Virus record (IMG/VR): IMGVR_UViG_3300008108_000006
Source: a virus
Taxonomy: Duplodnaviria > Heunggongvirae > Uroviricota > Caudoviricetes
Reading direction: 5' to 3' (one strand)
Length of the DNA: 64,000 bases
Part shown: in pieces, positions 41,173 to 62,548 of the stretch
How the letters are laid out: every line of letters begins with the position of its first letter
Position numbering within the stretch: position 1 is the stretch's first letter
Position numbers and translations under genes: made by a program
Notes under the pieces: model-generated
The model's database searches: none
Told to the model about the DNA's origin: nothing
What the model saw: only the letters and a program-made list of their open reading frames with translations

Positions 41173-41200
41173 AAAAAAGGTCAGATTTCTCTGACCTTTT
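41173..41200 (-). repeat. Copy 1 of a 28-bp terminator hairpin repeat (downstream of the HNH gene)
   Basis: AAAAAAGGTCAGATTTCTCTGACCTTTT, identical to 41931-41958. Confidence 0.9.
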
Positions 41201-41877
41201 TAAAACTTATTGGATTTTCTGATATTTTCTTCACCCCATAACGGTTGTAGATTTCTTAAAGACCAACACTCCATGAACTTATCATCCCCAATCTCTCGGA
41301 TATCAAACGATGATATTGGTTGGATATGATCAACGTGCCATTGCCCATAATTGTCCCACGTCATATTATCCATAAATTGTTTTTCTAAATGATCAATCAA
41401 ATCGTCGGGTGAATATTTTAAGATATCAAAATAATGACCATTCTTTTGAACATTATTCTCTTTCAATACCTGATAAATCGCCGTTCTGAAATTGTTGATT
41501 AACTTATAGATGGGGTCATTAGCTTTACGAGTTCTTTCGTAATTACGTTTAGTTTCTCTAATTTTTTCTTTATTGTTTTCACGGTATTCTTTTATATACT
41601 CGTTCCATTTTTCCTTATTTTCTTCATACCATTTTTTATGATTATCAGATAATTTTTTTTTATTTTTTTCACGATATTTTTTGTCGGCAACTTTTTTACC
41701 CCCTATGAATCGTCTACCGGAAGGACCTAATTTAGCGTTGTTTTCCCTTAAAACTCTTAAAATAACAGGTTTAGATAAACCAGTTTTTTGTGATATTGAT
41801 TGTGAACCTAATAATTCGTCATTATACATTTTAAGAATATTAATTAATTCTTCTTCAGATGGGATATATTTCTTCAT
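41200..41877 (-). CDS. Free-standing HNH (homing-type) endonuclease with N-terminal HTH
   Basis: MTWDNYG-x-WHVDHI-x-P...NLQPLW-x2-EN-x2-KSNK; ATG at 41877 has TATTTAT 4 nt upstream. Confidence 0.85.
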   Translation of the reverse strand: MKKYIPSEEELINILKMYNDELLGSQSISQKTGLSKPVILRVLRENNAKLGPSGRRFIGGKKVADKKYREKNKKKLSDNHKKWYEENKEKWNEYIKEYRENNKEKIRETKRNYERTRKANDPIYKLINNFRTAIYQVLKENNVQKNGHYFDILKYSPDDLIDHLEKQFMDNMTWDNYGQWHVDHIQPISSFDIREIGDDKFMECWSLRNLQPLWGEENIRKSNKF

Positions 41878-41930
41878 AATAATAAATATAACACATACGA
41901 CCAAAAAATCAACTATTACTTAAAGAAACA

Positions 41931-41979: not shown

Positions 41980-43842
41980 TTATCTCAATTCTCTCAAATC
42001 GAATGTTCTAACACCATCAACGGTAATACGGCCATAGAAGCGATTGTTGACCATCTTCTTCGCGTAACGTGTCATAATACCTTTAATAGGCGTGAAGTTG
42101 AATGGATTGTACATCGTTGGAGTTAATTGTAGAGGTACATACGGTGCGTAAACGTAACCAGTATCCAATAGAGAAGTACCTTTGTGACCCAACAATACTT
42201 GGTTTGGTGGGAAGTAAGGATCTCTATACACTTGGTAACGACCTGCTAATGTACCAACTCTTTCAATACCCATGTTGTATTGATCTTGCTCAGGAGCCGC
42301 GTTTGATACGTGGAAATATTCCAAATCATCAAAGATAGCGGATACTTCAGAAGATACAACGATCCAGTTAGCACCACCTCTCAAAGTTGATTTGTGAATT
42401 TGAGCGGAGATTTGGTTAATTGCTGTGATAAGAGTTTGGTTCCAGTCCTTTTGAGTGTAAGGTGCGAATGATGTAGAAGAAATTCTCTTCCAACCATTAT
42501 AATCCCATCTCAAGTTCCAAGCCGCACCTTTTCTAAGGTCACGAAGAATTTCACGGTCAATTTCCGCAGCAACTTGTTCTGACAACAATGCTGTCAATTC
42601 AGCTTCAGCGTCAATGTTGTGGAATGCTGCAACGTCTTGTGCCAATTCAGGAGACCATTGTGCTCTTAATTTTCTTTCTGTTACCGATACAGTTACAGAT
42701 TCCAAATCAAAAGAAACTTCACCGATAGCATCTTCAAATTCTAACTCTTTATATCTTCTATAAACCGCTCTGAATGAAGTATTGATAGCTGTTTGAGAAG
42801 AGAATGTCGCACCTGTGTAACCATCTAAAGAATTAGAACCAAATGTTGCTGGTGATGTAAGATCTACTTCTAAGAAAATAATACCATTTTGTGATGCGAT
42901 GTTGAAGAATGCTCCTCCGTTACCCGGTGTGTTAGTCGAAAGGAGTGAGTTATTCCAACTTGTGGTAGTGTTTGTACCGTACTGAACTATACCTTTACCA
43001 TATTGTTGAGTCACAACTCTAAATAAGTAAGGGTTATATTGGTTCGCTGATGTGAATGGGTTACTTGATGACCCAAGAATTCTCAAATCAGATAAGAAAG
43101 ATTCTGTATCCATTTCTTGACCATCAGGACCAATAAGTTTACCGTTACCTACGTTAGAAAACCCTGACATACCAATAATTACTTTTTTAGTGTTTGCGTC
43201 AAAAGCATATGCTGAAGGTACCAAAGCACCATTACTATCAAACGCAAATGTTGCAGTGTCAGCAGTTACTAACCACCAAGGACCTTTAGAATAGTCGAAA
43301 AGACCTGCTGGGTCTAAACCAGGTTCAGTTCCTTCATAGAACAAATCATAGAGATTTTTTGAATATGTGTTGTTATAGTTACCGGTACCAAGTGTTGTTG
43401 TATATCCTCCATTTGGATCACCAGGATAGTTACCTGGAGAACCGATAGGTGGAATATGTTGTCCTGAAGCACCATTAGTTTGATAATAGTTACTACCACC
43501 ACTATAACCCTGAATTTTAGGTACGAAGTAGAACAATTTACCGATAGGTAAGTTCATTGCTTGTACAGAAACGATATCATTTGCTAACAACTTAGAGAAT
43601 ACACGTCTGATGATAGGAAATACAACCGTTTCAAAAGAACCTGAATCTGCAGTCGATGTTGATTCGTTTATTAAAAAAGATGCTTGGTTTTCATACAATT
43701 GAGCCATGTTCTCTTTCAAGTGACCGCTCAAACCTTCAAGGAACCCAAGCTTGTTCCATTTGTTAATAGTATCTTCTTTGATAACTTTTAGGTGCTTAAG
43801 ACCAATGTTACCAACAAGACCGCTTTCTAATAATGCTCCCAT
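41980..43842 (-). CDS. Major capsid protein (T4 gp23-like)
   Basis: RKLRAQWSPELAQD, IDAEAEL, EIDREI, GYVYAPYVPL, F-x-P-x-KGIMTRY; large G/N/S/T-rich insertion. Confidence 0.96.
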   Translation of the reverse strand: MGALLESGLVGNIGLKHLKVIKEDTINKWNKLGFLEGLSGHLKENMAQLYENQASFLINESTSTADSGSFETVVFPIIRRVFSKLLANDIVSVQAMNLPIGKLFYFVPKIQGYSGGSNYYQTNGASGQHIPPIGSPGNYPGDPNGGYTTTLGTGNYNNTYSKNLYDLFYEGTEPGLDPAGLFDYSKGPWWLVTADTATFAFDSNGALVPSAYAFDANTKKVIIGMSGFSNVGNGKLIGPDGQEMDTESFLSDLRILGSSSNPFTSANQYNPYLFRVVTQQYGKGIVQYGTNTTTSWNNSLLSTNTPGNGGAFFNIASQNGIIFLEVDLTSPATFGSNSLDGYTGATFSSQTAINTSFRAVYRRYKELEFEDAIGEVSFDLESVTVSVTERKLRAQWSPELAQDVAAFHNIDAEAELTALLSEQVAAEIDREILRDLRKGAAWNLRWDYNGWKRISSTSFAPYTQKDWNQTLITAINQISAQIHKSTLRGGANWIVVSSEVSAIFDDLEYFHVSNAAPEQDQYNMGIERVGTLAGRYQVYRDPYFPPNQVLLGHKGTSLLDTGYVYAPYVPLQLTPTMYNPFNFTPIKGIMTRYAKKMVNNRFYGRITVDGVRTFDLRELR

Positions 43843-43871
43843 TTTAATTTTTATTTAAGGAAATTTATTTT

Positions 43872-45256
43872 TTATTTTACAATTTTTGACATAATGTCTT
43901 TCATTCTTAAAAACTGAGGATTTTCATAATAGCGTAAGCCAAGTTTGAGTTGAATACCGCAACTTCATTTAATTTGTCTCTGAAAATATTCAATGCTTTT
44001 CTATACTCTTCATTTTTTGATCTTAAAACATCAATTTCACTTTCAAGATTTAAATTTCTGTTCGGCGTAAAACCTTTTCTTAAACCACGTCCGCTCTTAG
44101 AACCAAATGCGTATGATCTTGAAGCTTCTTTAGTTTCTTTTTTGAAAGGTCTCATTTCTTTTTTCATAGCACCATCCAAGGATCCTTCTTTGAATTCAAA
44201 CTTAGCTTTACCTAATTTTGCACCACTACCGATTTTATATTCGTGTTTTCCACCAGTGTTACCTTTATCAAAATCAGATTTTTGATTTGTTTTGTAATCA
44301 AAAGAAGGTTTACCTGTTTTAGCACCTTTACCTACAACGGGTTTTGATTCACCCATTTCTTTATGTGTAGATCTCTTAGATGGTTTTGTCATTTTAGATT
44401 TACCCATCATACCCATAGACATTACAGGTTTGATTTTACCCATTGGTTTTTTCATAGACTCGTTCATATAAGATTCTTCCTCCATGTCTTCTTCTTCCAT
44501 TTCAATTTCGTACATGATGTCATCAATATCCATTTCCATGTCCATTTCATCATCATCCATACCCATTTCCATGTCCATGTCTTCTTCCATTTCGATTTCG
44601 TACATGATACCTTCTTCTTCCTCTTCTTCTTCGGATTCTTCATCCATTTCGTTCATGTAAGATTCTTCTTCTTCATCATACATTTCACTGAAAAGTTTGT
44701 CCATAAGTTCATCAGAATCTTCATCGGAAAAATCAAATTCATCTTCCATCTCGTCTAACTCATCTTCTTCCTCATTCATGCGAATAAGAAATTCAGAATC
44801 ATCCTCTTCGTCTTTGATGTTTAAAAAATTACCATCTTTAACAACTTCAATTTTGTCGTTAGGTCCAAGTTTTTTGAAAACAGCAGCAACTTCTTCGGGA
44901 CTAGCGTTAGTAAGATCTAAGGTTTCAGAATCATCTTCCATATCCATATCAAATTCCATTTCGTCCTCGTCTTCCATGTCCATATCAATCTCCATTTCGT
45001 CCTCGTCTTCCATTTCATCCTCATTTTCGTCAGAATCCATTTCGTCCTCATCTTCCATGTCAACATCAATTTCCATTTCGTCCTCGTCTTCTTCGGGTTT
45101 ATCTTTAGCCTCTACCATCAAAGACTCTTTTACCAATTCAGAGATTTCTTCCTTCATTGTAGAAGAAAGTATTCCTTTTGCATTTTCAGCGATGACTTCT
45201 TCCAAACCTTTGATTTGGTTCATCACATCTTCAGCTAATGACTTTTTGTCTGCCAT
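43872..45256 (-). CDS. Prohead core/scaffold protein (gp22-like), apparently frameshifted or deleted near the 3' end
   Basis: Highly acidic ORF directly upstream of MCP; ORF stops at 43907 but an alternative frame continues YENPQFLRMKDIMSKIVK* to 43872. Confidence 0.7.
44930..45095 (-). repeat. Coding tandem repeats (MEDEDEMEID-like)
   Basis: Repeated TCCATTTCGTCCTCGTCTTCCAT units on the + strand. Confidence 0.8.
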
Positions 45257-45322
45257 ATTAATTATAGTTTTGTTAATAAATATATGGAAAAATCAAAAAA
45301 TCACTTTGTTACATATAAAAAC

Positions 45323-45352
45323 AAAAAAACCCCCGACTTTCGCCGAGGGTTA
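45323..45352 (-). terminator. Intrinsic terminator
   Basis: AACCCTCGGC-GAAA-GTCGGGGGTT followed by a T-run on the - strand. Confidence 0.8.
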
Positions 45353-45372
45353 ACCCTAAAAATTAAAAACAA

Positions 45373-45588
45373 TTAGTCTTTATCAAAAACTTCATTGATT
45401 TTACTCTCTGATACTGAAGTGATCCTCCATTCGTGAGGGAACCCTTCATATTTCTTCGTTACAATTGCTTCAACATCGGTAACCGATATTGCATTAACCA
45501 ATTTCTCTTCACGAATTTTTTTAATACGACCTGTGTTTTCATCAGGTAAATCGTATTGAACTTTTGCTACAAAATATTTTTCTTCCAT
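45373..45588 (-). CDS. DUF4494-like small protein
   Basis: F-x-x-KV-x-Y...G-x2-KK-x2-E-x2-LV-x-A-x-S-x-T-x-x-EA...EVF resembles the Bacteroidota DUF4494 family (from memory). Confidence 0.6.
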   Translation of the reverse strand: MEEKYFVAKVQYDLPDENTGRIKKIREEKLVNAISVTDVEAIVTKKYEGFPHEWRITSVSESKINEVFDKD

Positions 45589-45597
45589 AATATAAAT

Positions 45598-46237
45598 TTA
45601 CTTACCCAAATAATGCGAAAGTTTTTTCATAAGGTCAAGCGATTTGTTTTCAAAAGAAGAATTATGTTGATGGAGATGATACCAAGTCAAAACAAATTAA
45701 CTCAAAATCACCTTGAACTTCGTTTTGTTCTCCAACTTTTTTAAGTGATCCAACACCCCTTGAAGAAATCCCTAATGTAACCCCTTGTCTTAATAGGTTT
45801 GCTGCTTGGTCACCTTTTGTTGATACAATACCTCTTTCATGGAATCCTGGTGATGTTAGTAGTTTAAGTTTTCCTAAACACACATTTCCATCCCACCATA
45901 TTTCGGTTATCGCATGTGATACACGATCAAGATCAATTAATGATGACTCGGGGTGGTTTAATTCGGATAAAGCAGTTCCCTTGTTGATTGCCTTTTTATA
46001 GTTATCAACCTCTCTTCTTAATATGCTTTCGGGATAAATCCTACCGTTCCTATTTGGTGTATTATATTTTTGTAACACAGCATAAAATTCAAAAGGTTTG
46101 GAATAATCTAACATATTCTTTGATTCTTCCAAAACTTTTCTATTCATTCTATCTTGTGGATCGATATATCCCGCGTCCCACTCAACTAATATTCCTTTAC
46201 CTATTTCGTTTGGTCCTAAAATTTTCATAAACGTCAT
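45598..46237 (-). CDS. Prohead protease (T4 gp21-like), C-terminus disrupted
   Basis: NRNGRIYP, ELNHP, GISSRGVGS, FDLVSSPST then stop at 45662; +1 frame continues NSSFENKSLDLMKKLSHYLGK* to 45598. Confidence 0.85.
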
Positions 46238-46252
46238 TTTGATATAAATATA

Positions 46253-46699
46253 TCAATATTCCATCTGTGGTTCTTTTTTTGATAATGAAAAATTAAAGTC
46301 ATCTGAATTTATGAAACAATCAACATATATTGAGTCACAAATTTCTTTAATATTGTCTTTAATAATTGTTTCTCTGAAATCTATATTTTGATTGGTAAAT
46401 AAGGTTATTTCCAAATTTCCGAAACTTTTTTTACCATAAGATAACCCACTCATTTTAACATCCAAATCAATAATGAAATTTTCTTTGAATAATTTTTTAT
46501 CTATGGTGTCTGTAACAACCTGTTTTATATTTCTTTGTAAGATTGTAATTGGTTTATTCCATTTTTCAAATTCTTTGGTTGGTGATAACCACGATTGAAA
46601 ATTGATGTAAATTGATTTTAATTCTTTTGAATCTACCGTGCCGTATGTAACTTTCGTATTCTTATACCCACTTAATTTAGAAGTTTTACCCTTCTTCAT
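46253..46699 (-). CDS. Hypothetical phage protein
   Basis: 148-aa ORF. Confidence 0.75.
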   Translation of the reverse strand: MKKGKTSKLSGYKNTKVTYGTVDSKELKSIYINFQSWLSPTKEFEKWNKPITILQRNIKQVVTDTIDKKLFKENFIIDLDVKMSGLSYGKKSFGNLEITLFTNQNIDFRETIIKDNIKEICDSIYVDCFINSDDFNFSLSKKEPQMEY

Positions 46700-46768
46700 T
46701 ATTTAATAACATATTAGTAATATTTATTTTTACATAATACATAAAACATAAAAACCAAAAAGTCAAAA

Positions 46769-46957
46769 ATGATAATAGTTGAAGTAAGTGATTTTAAATC
46801 ACTTGATAAAGCACTTAAACATTATAAGATGAAAGTGATTAAAACAAAACAGATGGATATTCTGTATGGTAACAGAGAATATGTTAAAAAATCTGTTAAA
46901 CGTAGAACTGAGATTAACAAAGCAAAATATAATCAAAAAAAGAAGGACTTAGATTAA
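46769..46957 (+). CDS. rpsU: Phage-encoded ribosomal protein bS21
   Basis: 62 aa, basic; V-x-V...LDKALK-x-YK-x-K...REYVK-x-SVKRR. Confidence 0.88.
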   Translation: MIIVEVSDFKSLDKALKHYKMKVIKTKQMDILYGNREYVKKSVKRRTEINKAKYNQKKKDLD

Positions 46958-47652
46958 AGTCCTTCGTATAAGTTTTGTAGTTTTAAGTAATTAATTTTAT
47001 TAAACGGTTCCTTTTCAACTGTTTGAACAGTCTCATTGAGTTTCTGTTTAATTTCTTCATCATTATTTGTTAATATGTGATTCTTCAACTTAATTAACGT
47101 ATTTTCTTTTAATACATCAAAATCAGGTTTTAATTCATCTTCTTTTTTGGAAAATACTTCATCCAGCTGTTGTAACACCTCGGGTTCCAAACCATCAATA
47201 TATTTTTCCAAATTGTATTTAACGACGTTCTCAACAAAAGGAACAAATTGTTTTTTCACAACATCTTTGGATTCAGTTAAAGTTGAAACCAATTGTTTTT
47301 TGTTTTCAATATTTTCCGTGATTTTTAACACGTCCTCTTTTAATAAAGAATCTATTTTAACATATTGATTTTCACAAACAACATCCTTAACCCAATTTTT
47401 AAGATCAATTAAAAATAAATGATCTTTTTTATTTTTAATTGTTTTGATACTTTCTTCCAAATATTCCTTGGCAACGTCCGAACTCATACCTTGCTTAGTT
47501 GTAAGGTTCGAATATAAATAATAACATTCACTAAGCATTTTGTTTGAAATAACAATATTTTTGAAATTACTTATTTCAGTCTTGAATGTTTGATTGATGT
47601 ATGAGTCATTTAATTTTTTCTCAACCTTAGAGAATAATAATCCTAATTCCAT
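46954..47652 (-). CDS. Hypothetical protein downstream of the portal
   Basis: 232-aa helical ORF; TATTTAT upstream. Confidence 0.75.
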   Translation of the reverse strand: MELGLLFSKVEKKLNDSYINQTFKTEISNFKNIVISNKMLSECYYLYSNLTTKQGMSSDVAKEYLEESIKTIKNKKDHLFLIDLKNWVKDVVCENQYVKIDSLLKEDVLKITENIENKKQLVSTLTESKDVVKKQFVPFVENVVKYNLEKYIDGLEPEVLQQLDEVFSKKEDELKPDFDVLKENTLIKLKNHILTNNDEEIKQKLNETVQTVEKEPFNKINYLKLQNLYEGL

Positions 47653-47678
47653 TTTTTCTTTTTTTAATAAATACTTTA

Positions 47679-49493
47679 TTAATCGTTTAATAACTTATTA
47701 AACTCTTCATTTAAGTCATCAATTGATTTATTTCCCTTTTTTAGATCAAAATACTCATCAACACTTAATTCAGATTCAAAAATTAAATTGAATTTTTTAT
47801 CAACACTTGCAGTTTCTAACCCTGGTTCAGGACCTCCGGGTGGTGGGGGTGGTGGTGGTTCACCCAATCCTCCACCTAAACCACCTTCAAGACCTCCTCC
47901 GGGTGGAGGGGGTGCTGCCGCGGGTGCTGCTGCAGCATCAGTAGGTGTTGGACCCTCAGTGTATAACTTATCCAACGTATCAAATAAACCGGTTTTCTTA
48001 ATAACATTTGGTGTATTTGTAAGTTCTGTGGATACCGCTTTTTCAATTCTCTGTTGTTGTAAGTCTAACTTAATATCCTCATCAGAAAATCCGAGAATGT
48101 GCTTTTTAGCCCAAGAAACCGATGCGGGAGCAATACCCTCAATAGGTGTAACAGTGTCTTTATACGCCATCAATTTTTCTTTCCAAACATCAATCTTCAA
48201 TAGATCTGCCTGTGTTGATGGATTTGTTAAACTCAATGTGAAGTTTGATAATTCATCTTCAAACCCTAAAATAAACAAGTGTATAATTGCAATCTTATTT
48301 AATTCCTGCAACATACTTTTTTGAATACGATTAATGGTTCTTGCAAACCTAATATCCAAAAGTGCCAAATCTTTACCATTACCCACAACTTCTTCAAATC
48401 CTAAAAATGCTTTAGGTATTCTAAGTGCGGTAACCAACTTTTTTTGTATGTATTCAATATCGGCAATTTCGGATAAGTTTTGAGCACCTTGTAAGGTATC
48501 AATCGGTGATGCTTGTGCAACATCACGAACAGGGACAAAATAATCTTGATCCACAGCCATTTGATTATACCTCAAATCAACGTTACCCGTTTGGTCATCA
48601 ACAATCGGTTGTCGTTTAAAACGGTTCGCAAACTTTTGTACATAAGAATCCACATCATCATCATCCATATTTCCAACAAACACTTTAAACACCCTTCTTT
48701 CGGGTGCTCGTGATGTTCTATAAATTAACATCGCATCTTCCGCTAATACCAATTGTTTCCAAATTCTTCTTGCTTTTTCTAACATGGAAGTACCATAAGG
48801 TAGTTTTCTATCATCACCCAATAATCTAAAGTGAGCGATTTCCCAAGTGTTAAACTCTAATTGCTTATTCTTCCATGCAAACTTCATTGATTTCATTTCG
48901 GGAGCACCCTCACCAACTCTTGGTCCCATATGCATTCCACGTTCCAAACGTTCAATTTCAATATTTGGTAATTGGAAGTTACCAACAATACCATTTTCGG
49001 GATCTAATTTTAGATACACAAAGTTGTCACCATATTTACAAGTATTTCTTGTCCACATAGCCAAATTTGTATTGATATCCAAAACGTTATTAAACAAATC
49101 CGCCAATATTGATTTTATTCTTTTTGATTCAGAATAAATTTGAAGAATGTGACCGTTTTCATCCACAGTTGTGGATTCTTCAGCATATATATCAAGTGCC
49201 GCAGATATTTCGGGGGTATATTCCATACTTTCGTAATCATACGCCGCCGCCAATCTAGTAGGACCATAATATATTGATTGTTGATATAAATTGTTCTCAA
49301 TCTTAGCCCAATGCCCCGTTAAATATTTTGATTGTTTTGCTTGGAGTTTTTCCTTCTCATATTCCGACTTATCAGTGGTTTTTAATAGAACCTCCTTATC
49401 AAATTTGAATGTTGGATAATCATTATTAATCAATGAGTCAGGACCCATTGTTTTTGACAATCTCTGCCAAATAGTTAGTTTTTTATTTTCCAT
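47679..49493 (-). CDS. Portal protein (T4 gp20-like)
   Basis: PEI-x2-ALDIYAEE, YG-x-S-x-LE-x-ARR, L-x-EDA-x-LIYR-x-SRAPERRVF, DY-x-VPVR, I-x-TL-x-G; Pro/Gly-rich tail. Confidence 0.95.
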   Translation of the reverse strand: MENKKLTIWQRLSKTMGPDSLINNDYPTFKFDKEVLLKTTDKSEYEKEKLQAKQSKYLTGHWAKIENNLYQQSIYYGPTRLAAAYDYESMEYTPEISAALDIYAEESTTVDENGHILQIYSESKRIKSILADLFNNVLDINTNLAMWTRNTCKYGDNFVYLKLDPENGIVGNFQLPNIEIERLERGMHMGPRVGEGAPEMKSMKFAWKNKQLEFNTWEIAHFRLLGDDRKLPYGTSMLEKARRIWKQLVLAEDAMLIYRTSRAPERRVFKVFVGNMDDDDVDSYVQKFANRFKRQPIVDDQTGNVDLRYNQMAVDQDYFVPVRDVAQASPIDTLQGAQNLSEIADIEYIQKKLVTALRIPKAFLGFEEVVGNGKDLALLDIRFARTINRIQKSMLQELNKIAIIHLFILGFEDELSNFTLSLTNPSTQADLLKIDVWKEKLMAYKDTVTPIEGIAPASVSWAKKHILGFSDEDIKLDLQQQRIEKAVSTELTNTPNVIKKTGLFDTLDKLYTEGPTPTDAAAAPAAAPPPPGGGLEGGLGGGLGEPPPPPPPGGPEPGLETASVDKKFNLIFESELSVDEYFDLKKGNKSIDDLNEEFNKLLND

Positions 49494-49529
49494 ATTATAA
49501 ACTTACGGTTTTTTCTTTACAATTAAATA

Positions 49530-51296
49530 TTATCTTCCCTTTCCACCGAACAACCAATTATAATTTTGGTAATCCTGTCTTGTAGGTCCGTTTTTTCTTA
49601 CGTGTTGTTGATTATTAAATGATGGGGTCATCGGACTAAAAAAGTTCTCTTTTAACATAGGACTTTCCGCCACCTGCCACGCATCAATCAATGCTTTAGT
49701 TTGTTCAGTAACTTTTGTCAATGATGAAAAAGAATTTTCACCAACATATATCGCCATAGCAAGGGACATCAATAAATCATCGTGTTGTCCTTTTTGGTGA
49801 TCAGCACGACCATTGACATACACAAACGTTCTCATCTCGTTTAACAAACGATTACTTCTAATCTTATATCCGTGTCTTACCTTCTCCTCCAACGCACCAA
49901 TAATCTGTTCTCTCTTACTATTAAAATTCAAACCAGGAACTTTATTTGCTGCTTTAGGGTCAAACTTCCATCTATTCTGATAATCCACGCCATCAAAAAA
50001 TAAATTCTTATATCCAAGTTCTTGAAGTTTCCTTGCCGTGGATACCCCCATACCACCGGTAATATCAATCACAATAAACGCATCATACATTGTTGCCCAT
50101 TTATAACAGATCTCCGCAGCAACATCAGGTGGTATTTTTCCAAGATATTCCACAACTTGTTCCTGATCATCAAAATCAACGATTTGGAACGTCGTAAAGT
50201 CCTCACTATCCCCTCTTGATACATCGACCCCCATAATGTATTTATGACCCGGTATGGGGTCTTTCCATATCCATAGAGCACCCCCCAACATTCTTCCCGC
50301 AGGTTCTTGAATTAAGTTGTTATTGATTCTCGCAATATCCGTCTGATCAAATACGTTATCACCCGAACCAAGGAAGTTACATTCCAACTCTTGAGAAACT
50401 TTTCGTTTGTCAAACTTTAACTTCTTTACCATCTTTTCAAACCAATCTGAAGATGGTGAATACCCATTCTTTAATAAATCACGGATCTCATCAAAATCCC
50501 TATTTTCAAATGGTATTGAAGAATAATCAATCAAAGTTTCTTTACCATATTCCTCCCTGTTCAAAAAGTAATGAATAATGTTTTCTGTTTTAACCAAATA
50601 TAAATCTTTAGTATATCTCGGATCCTTCCACCAAACCATCTCAGATATTTTGAAATCGTTCATATTTTTAACCGCTTGGTCATAGATCTCATAATAAATC
50701 GGATCAAAACCATTCGGGGTTGAGATAACAATTACCTTACCACCCGTAGATAGTGATGCCATACATGCTGCCCAAAAATCACCATCGGCTTCAATATACG
50801 CCGCCTCGTCAAATATCAATATCGTTGGGGTATAACCACGAAGTGCATCCTTAGAAGTTGCAACCGCTTTAACCTCACATCCGTTTGTTAACTTGAAATG
50901 TCTCTGTGAGTTTTTTTCAGGTGAGAATCCAACACCAACCCAACCAGGCCATTGTTCTGTAAACCCCCTAACCTTATTTGCCATTTCCACGGCAGTGTCT
51001 AACTTATTGGCAATTATCAAAATCTTTTCAGGTTTTTGTTTCATTGCAAAAACCAATTTTTTACTTGCCCACGCAGCGGTAACCGTAGAAACCCCCGCCT
51101 GTCTATATTTTAGTGCAATGTTTTCATTATACGTATCATAGTCGTTTAATAATCCGATTTGATCGGGAAAACAATCTACAGGTACATATTTTTGAACCGT
51201 ATTATCATAAGTCTGTAAATACGTTCTCAGTGCATATGGTGTATCTTTCATACACCTTGCATATTCTATTAAGATTTGCTCTTTTGTAAGTGCCAT
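49530..51296 (-). CDS. terL: Terminase large subunit (T4 gp17-like)
   Basis: KYRQAGVST (Walker A region), LIFDEAA (Walker B), ISTPNG, QELEC-x-F, GVDVSRG, HDDL-x-M. Confidence 0.95.
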   Translation of the reverse strand: MALTKEQILIEYARCMKDTPYALRTYLQTYDNTVQKYVPVDCFPDQIGLLNDYDTYNENIALKYRQAGVSTVTAAWASKKLVFAMKQKPEKILIIANKLDTAVEMANKVRGFTEQWPGWVGVGFSPEKNSQRHFKLTNGCEVKAVATSKDALRGYTPTILIFDEAAYIEADGDFWAACMASLSTGGKVIVISTPNGFDPIYYEIYDQAVKNMNDFKISEMVWWKDPRYTKDLYLVKTENIIHYFLNREEYGKETLIDYSSIPFENRDFDEIRDLLKNGYSPSSDWFEKMVKKLKFDKRKVSQELECNFLGSGDNVFDQTDIARINNNLIQEPAGRMLGGALWIWKDPIPGHKYIMGVDVSRGDSEDFTTFQIVDFDDQEQVVEYLGKIPPDVAAEICYKWATMYDAFIVIDITGGMGVSTARKLQELGYKNLFFDGVDYQNRWKFDPKAANKVPGLNFNSKREQIIGALEEKVRHGYKIRSNRLLNEMRTFVYVNGRADHQKGQHDDLLMSLAMAIYVGENSFSSLTKVTEQTKALIDAWQVAESPMLKENFFSPMTPSFNNQQHVRKNGPTRQDYQNYNWLFGGKGR

Positions 51297-56530: not shown

Positions 56531-56561
56531 TTGGATAAATGGAATTGTTGGTTTATCTTTG
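56531..56561 (+). promoter_or_regulatory. Bacteroidota-type sigma70 promoter for clpC
   Basis: TTG, 20 nt, TATCTTTG (56554-56561). Confidence 0.7.
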
Positions 56562-56577
56562 TAAAAAATTCTTTTAT

Positions 56578-58593
56578 ATGACAGAACATTTTGATGAAAA
56601 CGACGGACAAGGAAAATCCAAATTGAAACAAGCATCCACTTCAGACACACCTGTTTTGGATAATTTTAGTAAAGATTTGATGAAACTTGCGTCAGAAGGA
56701 AAATTGGATCCGGTAATTGGTCGAGAACAAGAGATTGACCGAATTGCCCAAATCCTTTCAAGAAGAAAGAAGAACAACCCAATCATCATCGGTGAACCTG
56801 GTTGTGGTAAAACCGCAATTGTTGAAGGTCTTGCTATGAAGATTTTCAAAGGGGAATGTCCAAGAAGTTTATTGGATAAGCGGATTGTACTTTTGGACCT
56901 TACCTCTATTGTTGCAGGAACAAAATACCGAGGACAATTTGAGGAACGATTGAAGGTTATCTTGGAAGAGATCACCAACAACAAGAACATTGTTGTGTTC
57001 ATTGATGAGATTCACACCTTAGTAGGTGCAGGTAATTCATCAGGATCTATGGACGCATCCAACATCTTCAAACCCGCACTTGCTCGTGGTGAATTACAAT
57101 GTATTGGTGCCACCACATTGGACGAATACCGAACAAACTTTGAGAAGGACGGCGCATTAGAAAGACGATTCCAAAAAATTGTGGTTGATGCACCAAACAA
57201 AGACCAAACCTTAGAGATCTTAAAACAATCCAAAGACAAATATGAAGATTACCACAAGGTAATTTATTCAGATGAAATCTTAAACCTATGTGTTAATCTT
57301 GCGGATCGTTACATTACAGATCGAGAATTCCCCGACAAAGCATTTGACATTCTTGATGAAGTTGGTGCCAAAAGTCAGATTGAGATTAAGATGCCTGAAG
57401 CAATTGAAAAACTCAAAGAACAAGCAGCTGAGATCAAACGTTTGAAACAGAATGTTGTTAAACAACAGGATTATGAACAAGCGGCAGAACTTAGAGACCG
57501 AGAGCGGAAAGTAATTTCCAAATTGGAAGAAGAGAAGAAGAAGTTTGAGGGTGAGATGAATCTTCACAAGAAAGTAATTATCCCTGAACTTGTGTTAGAG
57601 GTCGTATCCAATATGACAAAAATTCCTGTGAATAAACTTAACTTGGATGATAAGAATTCATTGTTGAGTTTGGAATCAGATTTATCACAATCGGTTATCG
57701 GACAATCTGAAGCGGTTACCAAAATTGCAAAAGCGATTAGAAGAAACCGTTTAGGTATTAAGGACCCAAACAGACCGATCGGATCATTCATTTTCTTGGG
57801 TTCCACCGGTGTTGGTAAAACTCATTTGGCAAAACAATTAGCAAGACAAGTGTTCGGATCTCCCGACGCACTAATCCGTGTTGATATGTCAGAATACCAA
57901 GAAAAACACACCATCTCAAAATTGATTGGTTCTCCTCCCGGATATGTTGGTCACGATGAAGGTGGTCAGTTAACCGAACAAGTAAAAAACAAACCATATT
58001 CTGTTATCCTATTTGATGAGGTTGAGAAGGCAAACAAGGAAATCTTCAACACCCTACTTCAAATGTTAGATGAAGGACACTTAACTGATAGTCTCGGTAG
58101 AAAGATTAACTTCAAAAATACCTTGATTATTATGACAACCAATCTCGGTGCTAAGAAGGTACAAGAGTTCGGAACGGGTATCGGTTTCTCCACCACAAGT
58201 AAGTCAATGATTGATGAGAGAAAAAAGGACATCATCACCAAAGAATTGAAAAACTTCTTCTCACCCGAGTTCCTAAACCGAGTTGATGAGATGGTTGTGT
58301 TTAATTCATTAAACCACGAGGATATCGTTAAGATTGTGGATGTTGAGATGAAAAAATTGATCGACCGTCTTTCAGAGATGAAATACAAATTTACCTACGA
58401 TCAATCAATCGTTGAACACATCTCAAAGGTTGGATACGATGAACAGTATGGGGCACGTCCTCTCAAACGAGCAATCCAAGATGAGATTGAAGATCTAATC
58501 TCCGAAGAGGTATTGAAAGGTTCCGTAAAAGAGAACTCCAAATACAAACTCACCATTAAAGATGATAAGGTATCAATAACGAAAAGTCGGTAA
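56578..58593 (+). CDS. clpC: ClpC/ClpA-type AAA+ unfoldase lacking the N-terminal Clp-repeat domain
   Basis: Two AAA modules ([12 protein letters not shown]; [12 protein letters not shown]), UVR-like middle domain ([13 protein letters not shown]), ClpP-docking IGF loop. Confidence 0.9.
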
Positions 58594-59503: not shown

Positions 59504-61273
59504 TTATTCTTCAAATTCATCAAATAATGTCGGATTATATATAAAGTCAATAAACCCTCGGAAGGTAGGTGCCATTCTTTTTCTCTCGTTATCTGAATCT
59601 CTAATCATATCAAACGTTACAGTCCCATCTTCCGGATCAATTTCAAGAATTCGGAAAGAGTATTTATCACTTCTTGGGATTTTATATGTTCCCTTAACTT
59701 TATAGTTATTTTTTCTCAAAAACTCAATAAACTCTAACGCTTCAGGACTATTATCTTCTTCTATTTTTTCTAATATATTTTCTAAATGTGATTCAATGTA
59801 ATTATTAAAACCATCAGAATCAAAATCACCCTGATACTCGTAGATATAATCCTCACTAAAATCTAATTCTCCGTCCAATTTTTTACTTAACAGTTCAATT
59901 ACTGACAAATTTTCAGCATCCGATGTTAAAAATAAAGTCGCTAACGTAGTTCCCATAATACTAAATTTCCAAACATCAGATCTTCTATTATTGTCTTCAA
60001 CATATTCAAACCCCAAATTTTCCATTTCTTTAATGATGGAAGAGTTGATCTGTTCTCTGGCACCTTCTTCAAATGATTGATCATTTAATGTTGTGTATTC
60101 ACTAATAATATAATCAACATCCCTCTCATATAGATCGTTTAATTTATCTATAAATTCATTCATTTCTTTAGTGCTAATCCATTCATTAATATCCGGTATT
60201 AATATCTCAGGTTTAATATATGAAGCAATCTTTTTCAAGAGTTCCATATTTGATTCATTAAAATGCCTAAAAACGTATCCGTCCCTAAAATCATACCAAC
60301 CATCTGTATGCTCATATGAAGAATATGAGTGATAAACTTGTTGAATTGACCTTTGTTCATAATCATCCTCAATACCAAATACCTTCATAATTTCATCCAA
60401 ATCTAATTTCACTTCAACAACAGGGTACCACATACCTAACTGACTTAAATTATTAGTGTTACGATCTAAAAGGTATTGGTTTCCGGTAATTAAATACATT
60501 GACAAATTAATATAATCTTGAGAATTTTTTGACAATTTTCCAATAACTTCCATTAATTCAGGAAATTCTTTTTCCAATGTTTTAACACTACTCTTGTTGT
60601 TTTTAGAATCAAATACTTCAGTTTCGGAACCATCATTTGATACAAATAATGCCCATTTTCCATCAGGCTCACCTTTTTTAATGAAGTAATATAAATTACC
60701 ATTTTTGAAGTGTCTATCAAACTCATCGGAAGATGTGCTAGTTGTACACCATCTAGTTTCAGCACCATAATAACAAGAAGATTTCAAGGTCATAGGCTGA
60801 ACTACTAATATATTTTCATCTTCATAAATCTTCTTAGCGTCTTTCTTTATTTCTTTCTCTAATTCAGATTTACTCTTATTTTTTTCCAAAAAATTCCTTA
60901 TCCTAAATAAATCGTTTGATGTGTAACTAAAAATGTCTTTAGGATTTTCAATTGCCTTATCTATATCAGATAATGGATAATTATCGTGTATTTTACTAAC
61001 TAACTCAGGTGTTAGTCTATTATAATTTCGTTCAAAATATGGTAAATTACGATACCATTCCGTAATTAAATCAATCTGTGAAGATGATAAATAATCACCA
61101 CCATAAAATTCAATATCGTTGTTTAAGTTTTTCTCAATCCATTGAGCGTATTTACTGTCAGGTGTGTCAAACTCAAATATTTTACTAACCATGTTAATTA
61201 GATTAGGATATTTTTTGATAATGCTACGCATTGATCTATCTTTTTTACTCTCTAAAATAATTTTCTTACTCAT
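59504..61273 (-). CDS. Hypothetical large-phage protein with an SCYYG-x-x-T-x-WCT domain
   Basis: 589-aa ORF; TATTTAT 5 nt upstream. Confidence 0.75.
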   Translation of the reverse strand: MSKKIILESKKDRSMRSIIKKYPNLINMVSKIFEFDTPDSKYAQWIEKNLNNDIEFYGGDYLSSSQIDLITEWYRNLPYFERNYNRLTPELVSKIHDNYPLSDIDKAIENPKDIFSYTSNDLFRIRNFLEKNKSKSELEKEIKKDAKKIYEDENILVVQPMTLKSSCYYGAETRWCTTSTSSDEFDRHFKNGNLYYFIKKGEPDGKWALFVSNDGSETEVFDSKNNKSSVKTLEKEFPELMEVIGKLSKNSQDYINLSMYLITGNQYLLDRNTNNLSQLGMWYPVVEVKLDLDEIMKVFGIEDDYEQRSIQQVYHSYSSYEHTDGWYDFRDGYVFRHFNESNMELLKKIASYIKPEILIPDINEWISTKEMNEFIDKLNDLYERDVDYIISEYTTLNDQSFEEGAREQINSSIIKEMENLGFEYVEDNNRRSDVWKFSIMGTTLATLFLTSDAENLSVIELLSKKLDGELDFSEDYIYEYQGDFDSDGFNNYIESHLENILEKIEEDNSPEALEFIEFLRKNNYKVKGTYKIPRSDKYSFRILEIDPEDGTVTFDMIRDSDNERKRMAPTFRGFIDFIYNPTLFDEFEE

Positions 61274-61317: not shown

Positions 61318-61427
61318 TATTAGTTCTTTGAAATTATGGGGGCGACATGGAATCGACTGGTAGAATAAGGCGGTAAATGCACTTCGAGGCTGAATTAACC
61401 TTGTAAAACTGATTCAAAACAATAGCT

Positions 61428-61493
61428 GGCGACGTATTCGCAAACATGGAAACTTTAGGTCTTCTTAAAGGTTCTGAAGTAGCAGTAGCCTAA
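61428..61493 (+). other. tmRNA tag reading frame (A)GDVFANMETLGLLKGSEVAVA*
   Basis: Resume codon GGC after AATAGCT; 21 codons ending GTA GCC TAA. Confidence 0.75.
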
Positions 61494-61697
61494 TTGGTTA
61501 TTCTACACCGGGTCGGTCAGGACAAATAACCTTGGAACAGAAGTCCGTAGTTGTAGTTTAGGTTGATACTCTAAAAATCAACCACCACTTTTACCCGTTT
61601 ATATGGAAAATGAAAATGGAATATTTCGGAATGTTGAGAACCAACATTGACCTATAAGTGTAGTATGTTATTGGTTTGTCTAAACAGGACGTGGGTT

Positions 61698-61921
61698 TAA
61701 TTTCGGACCCATCTCGTAGTGATATGAGATTAAAAATCGGATGAATTCAGGGGACTCTAAATTCGTGAGAATATGACAATCCTGAGCCAAGCCTAATAGG
61801 AATAGGAAGGTGCAGAGACTATCGGGGGTTACACGCTTGTAACGTAATACCGACTTGAGCGTCCGACATCTCAATGAGATGATGATATAGTCCAAACATT
61901 AAGGAAACTTAATGAGTTATG
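61698..61921 (+). mobile_element. Group I self-splicing intron (224 nt, no ORF) in the tmRNA T-loop
   Basis: P1 with U.G splice-site wobble, P10, P/Q/R/S core (AATTCAGG, AATCCTGAGC, GTGCAGAGACTA, GATATAGTCC), P3, P7, P8, P9 with GAAA loop, terminal G. Confidence 0.93.
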
Positions 61922-61946
61922 CGAATCCCACCGCCTCCACCAAATG

Positions 61947-61977
61947 AAAAACGTCAGATGAACTCTGACGTTTTTTT
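61947..61977. terminator. Bidirectional intrinsic terminator after the tmRNA
   Basis: AAAAACGTCAGA-TGAAC-TCTGACGTTTTTTT. Confidence 0.85.
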
Positions 61978-62548
61978 ATTTACCAAATAATCCTCCATAT
62001 ATCCCCAAAGAATTAAAAGGGTTCAAGGATTTAGATAATTCCTTTGGATCAATTAAATCTGTTATCATATCCATATCAATCGGTGATTCTTTCGGTGTGT
62101 CAATTGTGGGTAGTGCATTACCTTTATTCAAATATAAATAAGGGTCGTATGGGTTACCCGCAACATCTTCAATTTCAAAATGTAAATGAGCACCTGTTGA
62201 TGATCCCCTATGTGGATCATTTTTACCCCCACCACTAATACCTATAACCTCACCCGCCTTCACCATCTTTCCTTTTTGCACTTTAATATCCTTTAAGTGA
62301 CAATATTTTGTATAAAACTTATTACCGTCTTGTGTATGTTTAATCCTAACAAAACCTCCACAATTTTTTTTATCTTGGTATTCGGAATTAACAACTTCAC
62401 CGTCCGCAGCAGATAAAACTTGTGTTCCCGATGGAACTGCAATATCAATCCCTTCATGTTTATGACCTGGTCTTTTAGCACCAAAAGATCTACCGGAAGA
62501 TGGTTTCTGCACAGTTCCTTGAACAGGATTTGTTATCTTAAAATTCAT
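61976..62548 (-). CDS. M23 metallopeptidase (putative endolysin or virion lysin)
   Basis: HEGID, YCHL, STGAHLHFEI. Confidence 0.92.
   Translation of the reverse strand: MNFKITNPVQGTVQKPSSGRSFGAKRPGHKHEGIDIAVPSGTQVLSAADGEVVNSEYQDKKNCGGFVRIKHTQDGNKFYTKYCHLKDIKVQKGKMVKAGEVIGISGGGKNDPHRGSSTGAHLHFEIEDVAGNPYDPYLYLNKGNALPTIDTPKESPIDMDMITDLIDPKELSKSLNPFNSLGIYGGLFGK

Follow-up and report, generated by a model that had tools for sequence, protein, structure and literature searches.

Organization of the tmRNA locus

The window, by which we mean the whole 64-kb stretch of viral DNA analyzed here, carries a tmRNA gene (61338-61942) that is split in its T-arm by a group I intron (61698-61921), as listed in Table 1 together with the surrounding features. 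Both elements had been proposed earlier from the letters alone (here called the sequence-only reading), and the coordinates given there proved exact. ARAGORN called 0 genes in the raw window, in line with the earlier warning that standard tmRNA finders may miss such genes, and called a tmRNA of the predicted 381 nt after removal of 61698-61921. On the unspliced window, the Rfam tmRNA model RF00023 gave a match of 63.8 bits (cut-off, 47), which breaks down at the T-loop. Among 81 registers of equal-length cuts, 10 gave an ARAGORN tmRNA, and U at position -1 combined with a terminal G occurred only in the register of the sequence-only reading. The insertion point lies after the second of the seven T-loop bases, which is subsite 3 in the numbering of the Fig. 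2 legend of PMC11915505, and this numbering is consistent with the Bacteroidota matches reported below. According to Rfam and ARAGORN, the spliced window tmRNA has a tRNA-like domain with CCA and an internal tag frame; tmRNA function is predicted to need splicing, as had been proposed.

Table 1. Features of the split tmRNA gene and of its surroundings in the window
Feature	Position	Strand	Details
T4-like head genes	41980..51296	-	gp23 41980-43842, gp20 47679-49493, terminase 49530-51296
ClpC/ClpB-like ATPase gene	56539..58593	+	Conserved tmRNA neighbor in the clade
589-aa protein, no function assigned	59504..61273	-	Divergent upstream neighbor; no Pfam match; weak matches to function-less PHROGs
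tmRNA exon 1	61338..61697	+	360 nt; 5' acceptor strand, tag frame, T-stem 5' strand, first two T-loop bases
Tag reading frame	61428..61493	+	GDVFANMETLGLLKGSEVAVA-stop, 21 aa, counted from likely resume codon GGC; basis, translation
P1, P10 5' strand, P2	61693..61730	+	P1 61693-97 with 61706-10, U.G at splice site; P10 61702-05; P2 61711-30
Group I intron	61698..61921	+	224 nt, ORF-less, T-loop subsite 3, U at -1, terminal G
Catalytic core	61737..61893	+	P3 61737-43/61860-66, P4, P5, P5a, P6, P6a, P7 61815-21/61888-93, P8
P7.1-type extra two-part helix	61822..61853	+	Between P7 and P3'
P9 hairpin, GAAA loop	61897..61914	+	Two-sided change in 7/7 pairs
tmRNA exon 2	61922..61942	+	21 nt; remaining T-loop, T-stem 3' strand, acceptor 3' strand, CCA
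13-bp hairpin	61946..61976	.	A-run before, T-run after; fold -15.3 kcal/mol
M23 peptidase gene	61976..62548	-	Convergent downstream neighbor; PF01551

The resume codon of the tag frame is likely GGC at 61428, judging by its alignment across 15 tmRNAs of the clade to which the window belongs; it lies four codons upstream of the start given by ARAGORN. Tags of this clade are 20 to 22 aa long and often end in VA, and host-type tags are 9 aa long and end in AA. In 50 of 66 loci, a ClpC/ClpB-like gene is found no more than about 5 kb from the tmRNA, and the long phage tag and the linked Clp ATPase possibly form a phage-specific tag/unfoldase pair. A gene for SmpB was seen in one of four related viral records and beside 2 of the 66 tmRNA loci.

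The matches to gp23, gp20 and a T4-like terminase place the gene in a phage context. The window capsid is 78% identical to the capsid of a complete 317-kb viral record, and the best named capsid matches (42%) are to Flavobacterium phages and a Microcystis phage. From these comparisons, we infer that the host is likely a member of the Bacteroidota; the runs holding the window stretch are freshwater or aquatic. Just after gp23, a free-standing endonuclease VII-like ORF (41200-41904, minus strand) was noticed, which lies outside the tmRNA-linked nuclease family described below, and about 30 ORFs between about 4000 and 31500 resemble glycosyltransferases or nucleotide-sugar enzymes, as judged from their translations. 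On the upstream side of the tmRNA, the 589-aa protein retrieved one distant locus when used as a query. Downstream, the tmRNA is followed by the hairpin and then directly by the M23 gene, with no nuclease gene in between. The hairpin is likely a two-way terminator between these two convergent genes; the terminator scan made 0 calls, the hairpin at 61946-61976 included, and the promoter scan returned 3 sites against 3.5 expected, nothing usable.

Fold and covariation of the intron

Next, the intron was compared with the Rfam group I model (RF00028, Intron_gpI), which matched the raw window with 102.1 bits (cut-off, 50). Every helix named in the sequence-only reading pairs in the window (P1, P2 with its GUGA loop, P3, P7, P8, P9, P10 and the extra helix), and the U.G pair in P1 and the terminal G are present. 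Across 20 distinct homologues, 92.2% of the cells are paired and two-sided changes are found in 34 of 71 pairs, with the structure drawn on the window row and alignment slips depressing the values of P5a and P7.1. None of 500 shuffles reached the observed level, and slid controls were at most 44% paired. P7 is invariant in 20/20 rows, while P4, P6a, P8 and P9 covary, and the U.G pair at the 5' splice site is retained in 19/20. Folding of the intron as a single strand gave a z score of -2.0, which is weak evidence alone, given a method in which the P3/P7 pseudoknot cannot form. Overall, the Rfam score, the covariation and the phage hallmark genes bear out the proposal of a complete, ORF-less group I intron in the T-loop of a phage tmRNA. 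An intron-encoded protein was considered and rejected for the window, in which the longest sense stop-free stretch of the intron is 29 aa; its 71-aa antisense ORF had no Pfam match at E 1e-20.

Introns of the IC3 class have a short P5/P5a, tetraloops on P2 and P9 and a peripheral set without P7.1, and the P7.1 helix is an IA-type feature. The window intron shares the short P5/P5a and the P2 and P9 tetraloops with the IC3 introns of tRNA-Leu and tRNA-Ile but differs from them in its P7.1-type helix, which it has in common with IA3 introns, and it thus combines features of the IC3 and IA sets. The sequence-only reading had singled out this extra helix as a departure from the IC3 core. The helix does pair in the window, but it is not peculiar to it: the Bacteroidota chromosomal introns described below also carry a P7.1-type helix, and a P7.1 region of tmRNA introns is named in the text of PMC11915505. 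Some subsite-3 introns were seen to end in A instead of G (L183, L188, L211, L229, L306 and L461, the RefSeq phage cr6_1), with P7 unchanged in the four that were aligned.

RNA contigs at the predicted splice junction

To follow the tmRNA in RNA data, 8 of the 23 listed sequencing runs were compared as assembled contigs. Exon 1 is covered by RNA contigs in 6/6 RNA runs and the flanking genes in none. One RNA contig of run X5 is identical to 61501-61697 over 197 nt and then continues into the first 12 nt of exon 2; the match of a contig of X6 stops at 61697, with 5 further letters beyond, and the contigs of RNA runs X7 to X10 end before the junction. In the six RNA runs, close matches to the window comprise exon 1 only, with no precursor contig, it being understood that contigs give no levels and that the lack of intron sequence among them says nothing about splicing. 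In runs X1 and X2, which are probably DNA, the joined form occurs at a depth similar to that of an intron-bearing contig, and one X2 contig diverges at 61976 into a different flank, suggesting the existence of an intron-less close relative. As the X5 junction could stem from such a relative, it is compatible with splicing without proving it. The junction search in metatranscriptomes that the sequence-only reading had proposed therefore yielded one RNA contig, but the joined form was also found in the probable DNA runs.

Introns in the tmRNAs of phages and bacteria

In the published survey of Nawrocki, Petrov and Williams (2025; PMC11915505), 883 intron-form tmRNAs from 21 phyla are reported, with introns at T-loop subsites 2, 3, 7 and 8, and subsite 3 is described as confined to the class Bacteroidia. 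The window intron, being at subsite 3, therefore belongs to a published class, and the sole precedent given in the sequence-only reading, that of Clostridium botulinum, is out of date. None of the 79 phage tmRNAs that the survey took from RefSeq is stated in its text to be intron-form. Where tmRNA introns are treated in 10.1101/2020.01.27.920355, the cases are bacterial only, and the account of huge phages in PMC7162821, in which tmRNA (found with ARAGORN) and SmpB are reported, leaves introns unmentioned in its tmRNA passages. As no described phage tmRNA intron was found in the open-licence literature, a phage carrier seems to be undescribed.

A pattern combining the intron end with the tmRNA end retrieved 110 viral loci, mostly chance matches, and subsite-3 introns were recognized in 28 viral contigs. 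Twenty-five of the 28 were mapped, giving 20 distinct sequences, the window included, of 213 to 228 nt and 68 to 94% identity to the window intron. After excision, ARAGORN called a tmRNA for 8 of the subsite-3 introns and at 5 subsite-7 loci. In the GTDB genomes, 9 of 17 pattern hits are subsite-3 introns and the other 8 are chance matches. Seven of the nine lie in Bacteroidota chromosomes, including those of two Hymenobacter isolates, and the remaining pair consists of a 425-kb contig with gp23 in an archaeal MAG and a 130-kb AT-rich contig, in which no hallmark genes were seen in the part examined. In the intron tree, phage and cellular subsite-3 introns together are separated from 3 viral subsite-7 introns with 100/100 support, with little resolution inside. 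The 425-kb contig (L247, JBBACR010000001.1, from a 'Pacearchaeota' MAG) encodes gp23 and a prohead protease besides its intron-split tmRNA and is likely a jumbo phage that was mis-binned, a point of relevance to reports of archaeal tmRNA.

We also used an exon-based pattern that is independent of the intron, for which 119 of about 410 stretches were sampled: 103 are intron-less, 6 carry an intron, 2 are cut at the T-arm, and 8 are not clade tmRNAs or are cut before the anchor. The survey of related phages suggested in the sequence-only reading thus gives a patchy picture, with the intron in 6 of 109 clade tmRNAs. Both metagenome contigs closest to the window carry it; it was present in 0 of 20 loci checked with the first viral pattern, and a window-specific junction pattern retrieved 0 viral contigs.

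Several further arrangements were observed. Eight phage loci (L388, L390, L391, L398, L402, L405, L406 and L307) have tmRNA introns of 192 to 197 nt at subsite 2, a position reported in the text of PMC11915505 only for Anaerolineae and one member of the Myxococcota. Those scanned score 62 to 84 bits with Rfam, and with only 7 to 12 nt between P7 and the terminal G these introns have no room for a P9 hairpin. L133 and L147 are viral subsite-7 introns of 654 and 672 nt, with ORFs resembling LAGLIDADG nucleases by eye, and L134 joins a 5' part of subsite-2 type to a 3' part of subsite-3 type, being either a recombinant or a misassembly. GOLLD RNA genes lie near the clade tmRNA at L256, L261, L293 and L431.

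A predicted nuclease family linked to the tmRNA gene

In many intron-plus loci, an ORF of about 180 aa, rich in cysteine, lies directly downstream of the tmRNA 3' end. Endonuclease and endonuclease VII families of PHROGs matched 8/8 of the members compared, and the family has an invariant LDRIDS..GY..GN...N block that aligns weakly to PacI (E 0.026). No Pfam match above the cut-off was obtained for the family, and a structure model built from 8 sequences was of low confidence (pLDDT, 53.5). On these sequence likenesses, the partner gene is predicted to encode an HNH/EndoVII-like nuclease.

The nuclease gene lies within 900 nt downstream of the tmRNA in 11 of 22 intron-plus loci versus 1 of 66 intron-less loci; once loci had been collapsed at 95%, the counts were 9 of 15 versus 1 of 52. 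Both comparisons rest on an intron-plus set enriched through the targeted pattern and on a profile made of 7 intron-linked proteins plus 1 other. As seen from closely related phages, intron and nuclease come and go together: L284, which has both, and L261, which has neither, are 99.5% identical in exon 1; apart from the intron and an insert of about 800 nt with the nuclease, the two are colinear, and L145 and L299 differ likewise. Among the best 80 of 448 viral nuclease homologues, at least 68 have a tmRNA call nearby; 30 of the 80 stand with an intron, 45 with an intron-less tmRNA and 5 without a profile call, and Rfam found a tmRNA in 1 of the 4 no-call loci scanned. The 45 intron-less loci imply that the nuclease does not require the intron.

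The nuclease gene was also found in antisense inside subsite-3 introns of 798 to 871 nt, in 4 contigs and in the RefSeq crAss-like phages cr128_1 and cr6_1, with the spliced tmRNA confirmed by ARAGORN in 2 of these 6 cases. In the latter two records (L460, NC_055885; L461, NC_055894), the tmRNA-like genes are unannotated and the introns of 869 to 871 nt contain an annotated endonuclease in antisense. Moreover, in three Hymenobacteraceae genomes the nuclease stands beside the intron-bearing tmRNA and is the sole copy of the family, and it was not found in 2 other intron-bearing MAGs. Within one Bacteroidota order, 301 genomes were searched and 3 contained the family, in every case next to an intron-bearing tmRNA; two of these genomes had already come up in the intron search. 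The pairing of nuclease and intron is seen at three subsites (2, 3 and 7) and in bacterial chromosomes.

A search for the nuclease family found none in the 64-kb window, none in the flanks of the window's closest relatives (L146 and L369) and none in the 49-kb record of L146. The window intron is thus an orphan, and the mechanism proposed below rests on its relatives: the arrangement of a collaborative homing pair is absent from the window and is present and co-inherited in them.

Among other genes at this position, a free-standing GIY-YIG-like gene directly follows several intron-less tmRNAs (L250, L252, L273, L275, L287, L291, L305 and L326). It occurs at 8 of 66 intron-less and 0 of 22 intron-plus loci, a difference short of significance, and was left aside. 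In addition, the nuclease-linked tmRNAs L429, L450 and L451 have an altered acceptor 3' end followed by a second partial end.

T-arm changes and probable transfer of the intron

If the nuclease cuts the tmRNA gene, its carriers would be expected to lack the target. Intron-less tmRNAs retain GGGTTCGA in the T-arm in 7 of 39 loci with the nuclease versus 44 of 65 without it, the 39 excluding six ARAGORN-only loci, and by distinct arms the counts are 4 of 26 versus 38 of 57. For a longer T-arm motif, chosen after the exceptions had been seen, they are 0 of 39 versus 34 of 65. The rows are related, so that the Fisher p values (about 1e-5 to 1e-6) overstate independence. This depletion is the pattern that self-immunity would produce, with the carrier escaping through an intron or an altered arm. 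In the window DNA, GGGTTCGA is found on neither strand. The suggestion of the sequence-only reading that the intron might mask a conserved site from nucleases finds support in a specific form, that of the tmRNA-linked family, from both co-occurrence and T-arm depletion.

When the presence of the intron was mapped onto a tree of 107 exon 1 rows from which the T-arm had been left out, 11 changes were needed, of which supported branches force 9; since the tree is unrooted, these counts cannot separate gain from loss. In three phage pairs, the introns are 93 to 96% identical and exon 1 only 66 to 72%; introns so much more alike than their exons indicate transfer.

Proposed mechanism and alternatives

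Taken together, these results make it probable that the window intron self-splices to give the 381-nt tmRNA and that it persists and spreads as a passenger of a nuclease predicted to cut the intact T-arm, rather than as a regulator. Two-step splicing, guided by the U.G pair of P1, by P10 and by the terminal G, would restore the 7-nt T-loop, and the mature tmRNA would work with SmpB supplied by the host or, for some relatives, by the phage. As the comparison of relatives indicates, the nuclease gene abutting the tmRNA 3' end has been gained or lost together with the intron. Its product would cut uninterrupted T-arms around GGGTTCGA, and repair would copy the nuclease along with the protected allele, protection being conferred by an intron at subsite 2, 3 or 7 or by a mutated T-arm. 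The window lineage would then have retained the intron, and the adjacent nuclease gene would have been lost or never taken up. What the analysis shows is the intron with its boundaries and distribution, its co-inheritance with the nuclease gene, the T-arm depletion, and exon 1 RNA in freshwater metatranscriptomes; the direction of transfer, the cleavage, the splicing and the host are inferred.

One alternative is a neutral intron of long standing in the tmRNA of the clade, now disappearing step by step, and a nuclease that is a selfish gene in its own right, using the intergenic spot behind the tmRNA; shared descent and short-range recombination would then explain why the two occur together. 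Unrooted change counts cannot tell gain from loss, an adjacent nuclease is missing from 6 of the 15 collapsed intron-plus groups (among them that of the window), and 45 of the 80 nuclease loci have no intron, all of which suits this account. Nevertheless, we regard it as unlikely, since the introns are far more alike than their exons, T-arm changes are enriched where the nuclease sits without an intron, and the pairing recurs at three subsites and in bacterial chromosomes.

The two other explanations, both raised (restriction apart) in the sequence-only reading, appear far less probable. Splicing might be a switch that sets the time or the conditions of ribosome rescue by the phage, given that an unspliced T-arm cannot form the normal tRNA-like domain and that a terminal A replaces G in five related introns, possibly delaying the second step. 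A switch that is needed is nevertheless hard to reconcile with the 103 of 109 clade tmRNAs that are intron-less; furthermore, near-identical phages differ by the intron, and the RNA runs matching the window show exon 1 only and no precursor contig, in contigs that give no levels. The proposal was therefore abandoned as very improbable. It would be similarly surprising if the intron masked the tmRNA 3' end from integrases or from host CRISPR or restriction systems and not from a homing nuclease: integration often takes place at tmRNA genes, as stated in the text of PMC11915505, and the window DNA is free of GGGTTCGA on both strands, but the co-inserted nuclease gene would be left unexplained.

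Returning to the passenger mechanism, we tentatively consider a broader version, which we think possible but doubtful. The T-arm may be a standing target of a nuclease family dedicated to it in Bacteroidota and their phages, with metagenomes displaying all stages of the cycle: the nuclease accompanied by a mutated T-arm or by a shielding intron at one of three subsites, the nuclease located within an intron, and the intron as an orphan. Phages might then act as vectors by which bacterial chromosomes acquire and lose tmRNA introns, and the host ssrA may itself be cut by the nuclease while the protected phage tmRNA, with its different tag and the linked Clp ATPase, takes over rescue.

Relation to known systems

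The window intron agrees with the subsite-3 class as described in the text of PMC11915505 in being a T-loop group I intron with U at -1, a terminal G and a P7.1 region, and in belonging to a mostly ORF-less group. It differs from that description in its carrier, a jumbo phage, and in the partner found in its relatives, which is HNH/EndoVII-like and either free-standing or in antisense inside introns of 798 to 871 nt. The survey's text gives endonuclease genes in 4.1% of tmRNA introns, these being LAGLIDADG and intron-encoded, and no intron longer than 700 bp. The C. botulinum tmRNA intron, cited as self-splicing in the part of PMC2729099 that concerns it, is likewise a T-loop group I intron; it is 287 nt long, and the previously known site is given as subsite 7 in PMC11915505.

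The closest parallel in arrangement that we discuss is the psbA intron of cyanophage S-PM2 with F-CphI, in so far as that pair is described in PMC6083498, PMC3984707 and PMC10448857. Relatives of the window share with it an ORF-less intron and an adjacent free-standing EndoVII-like endonuclease, and in both systems the intron interrupts the presumed nuclease target. Unlike the cyanophage pair, the one considered here has a structural RNA gene as its predicted target and is also present in bacterial chromosomes; a mutated T-arm appears as an alternative to the intron, and the window itself is without the nuclease.

Since tmRNA introns are widespread and yet only about 4% have an endonuclease, going by the figures in PMC11915505, their mobility is left unexplained; a partner that stands free, outside the gene, would provide an explanation. 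The loci also provide a natural allele series of intact, mutated and intron-split T-arms and of nuclease inside the intron. With this series one can ask whether free-standing nucleases enter introns or depart from them, which the relevant discussion of PMC10448857 does not settle. Moreover, phage tmRNAs are undercounted, as ARAGORN missed the window gene and two RefSeq crAss-like phage tmRNAs are unannotated.

Unannotated group I introns were also noticed in the tRNA clusters of two cultured jumbo phages, Escherichia phage Turkey5 (L456, PQ471516) and Klebsiella phage Muenster (L457, MT708547), each with an HNH gene nearby. They score 95 and 104 bits, respectively, and ARAGORN reads the Turkey5 locus as an intron-split tRNA-Arg.
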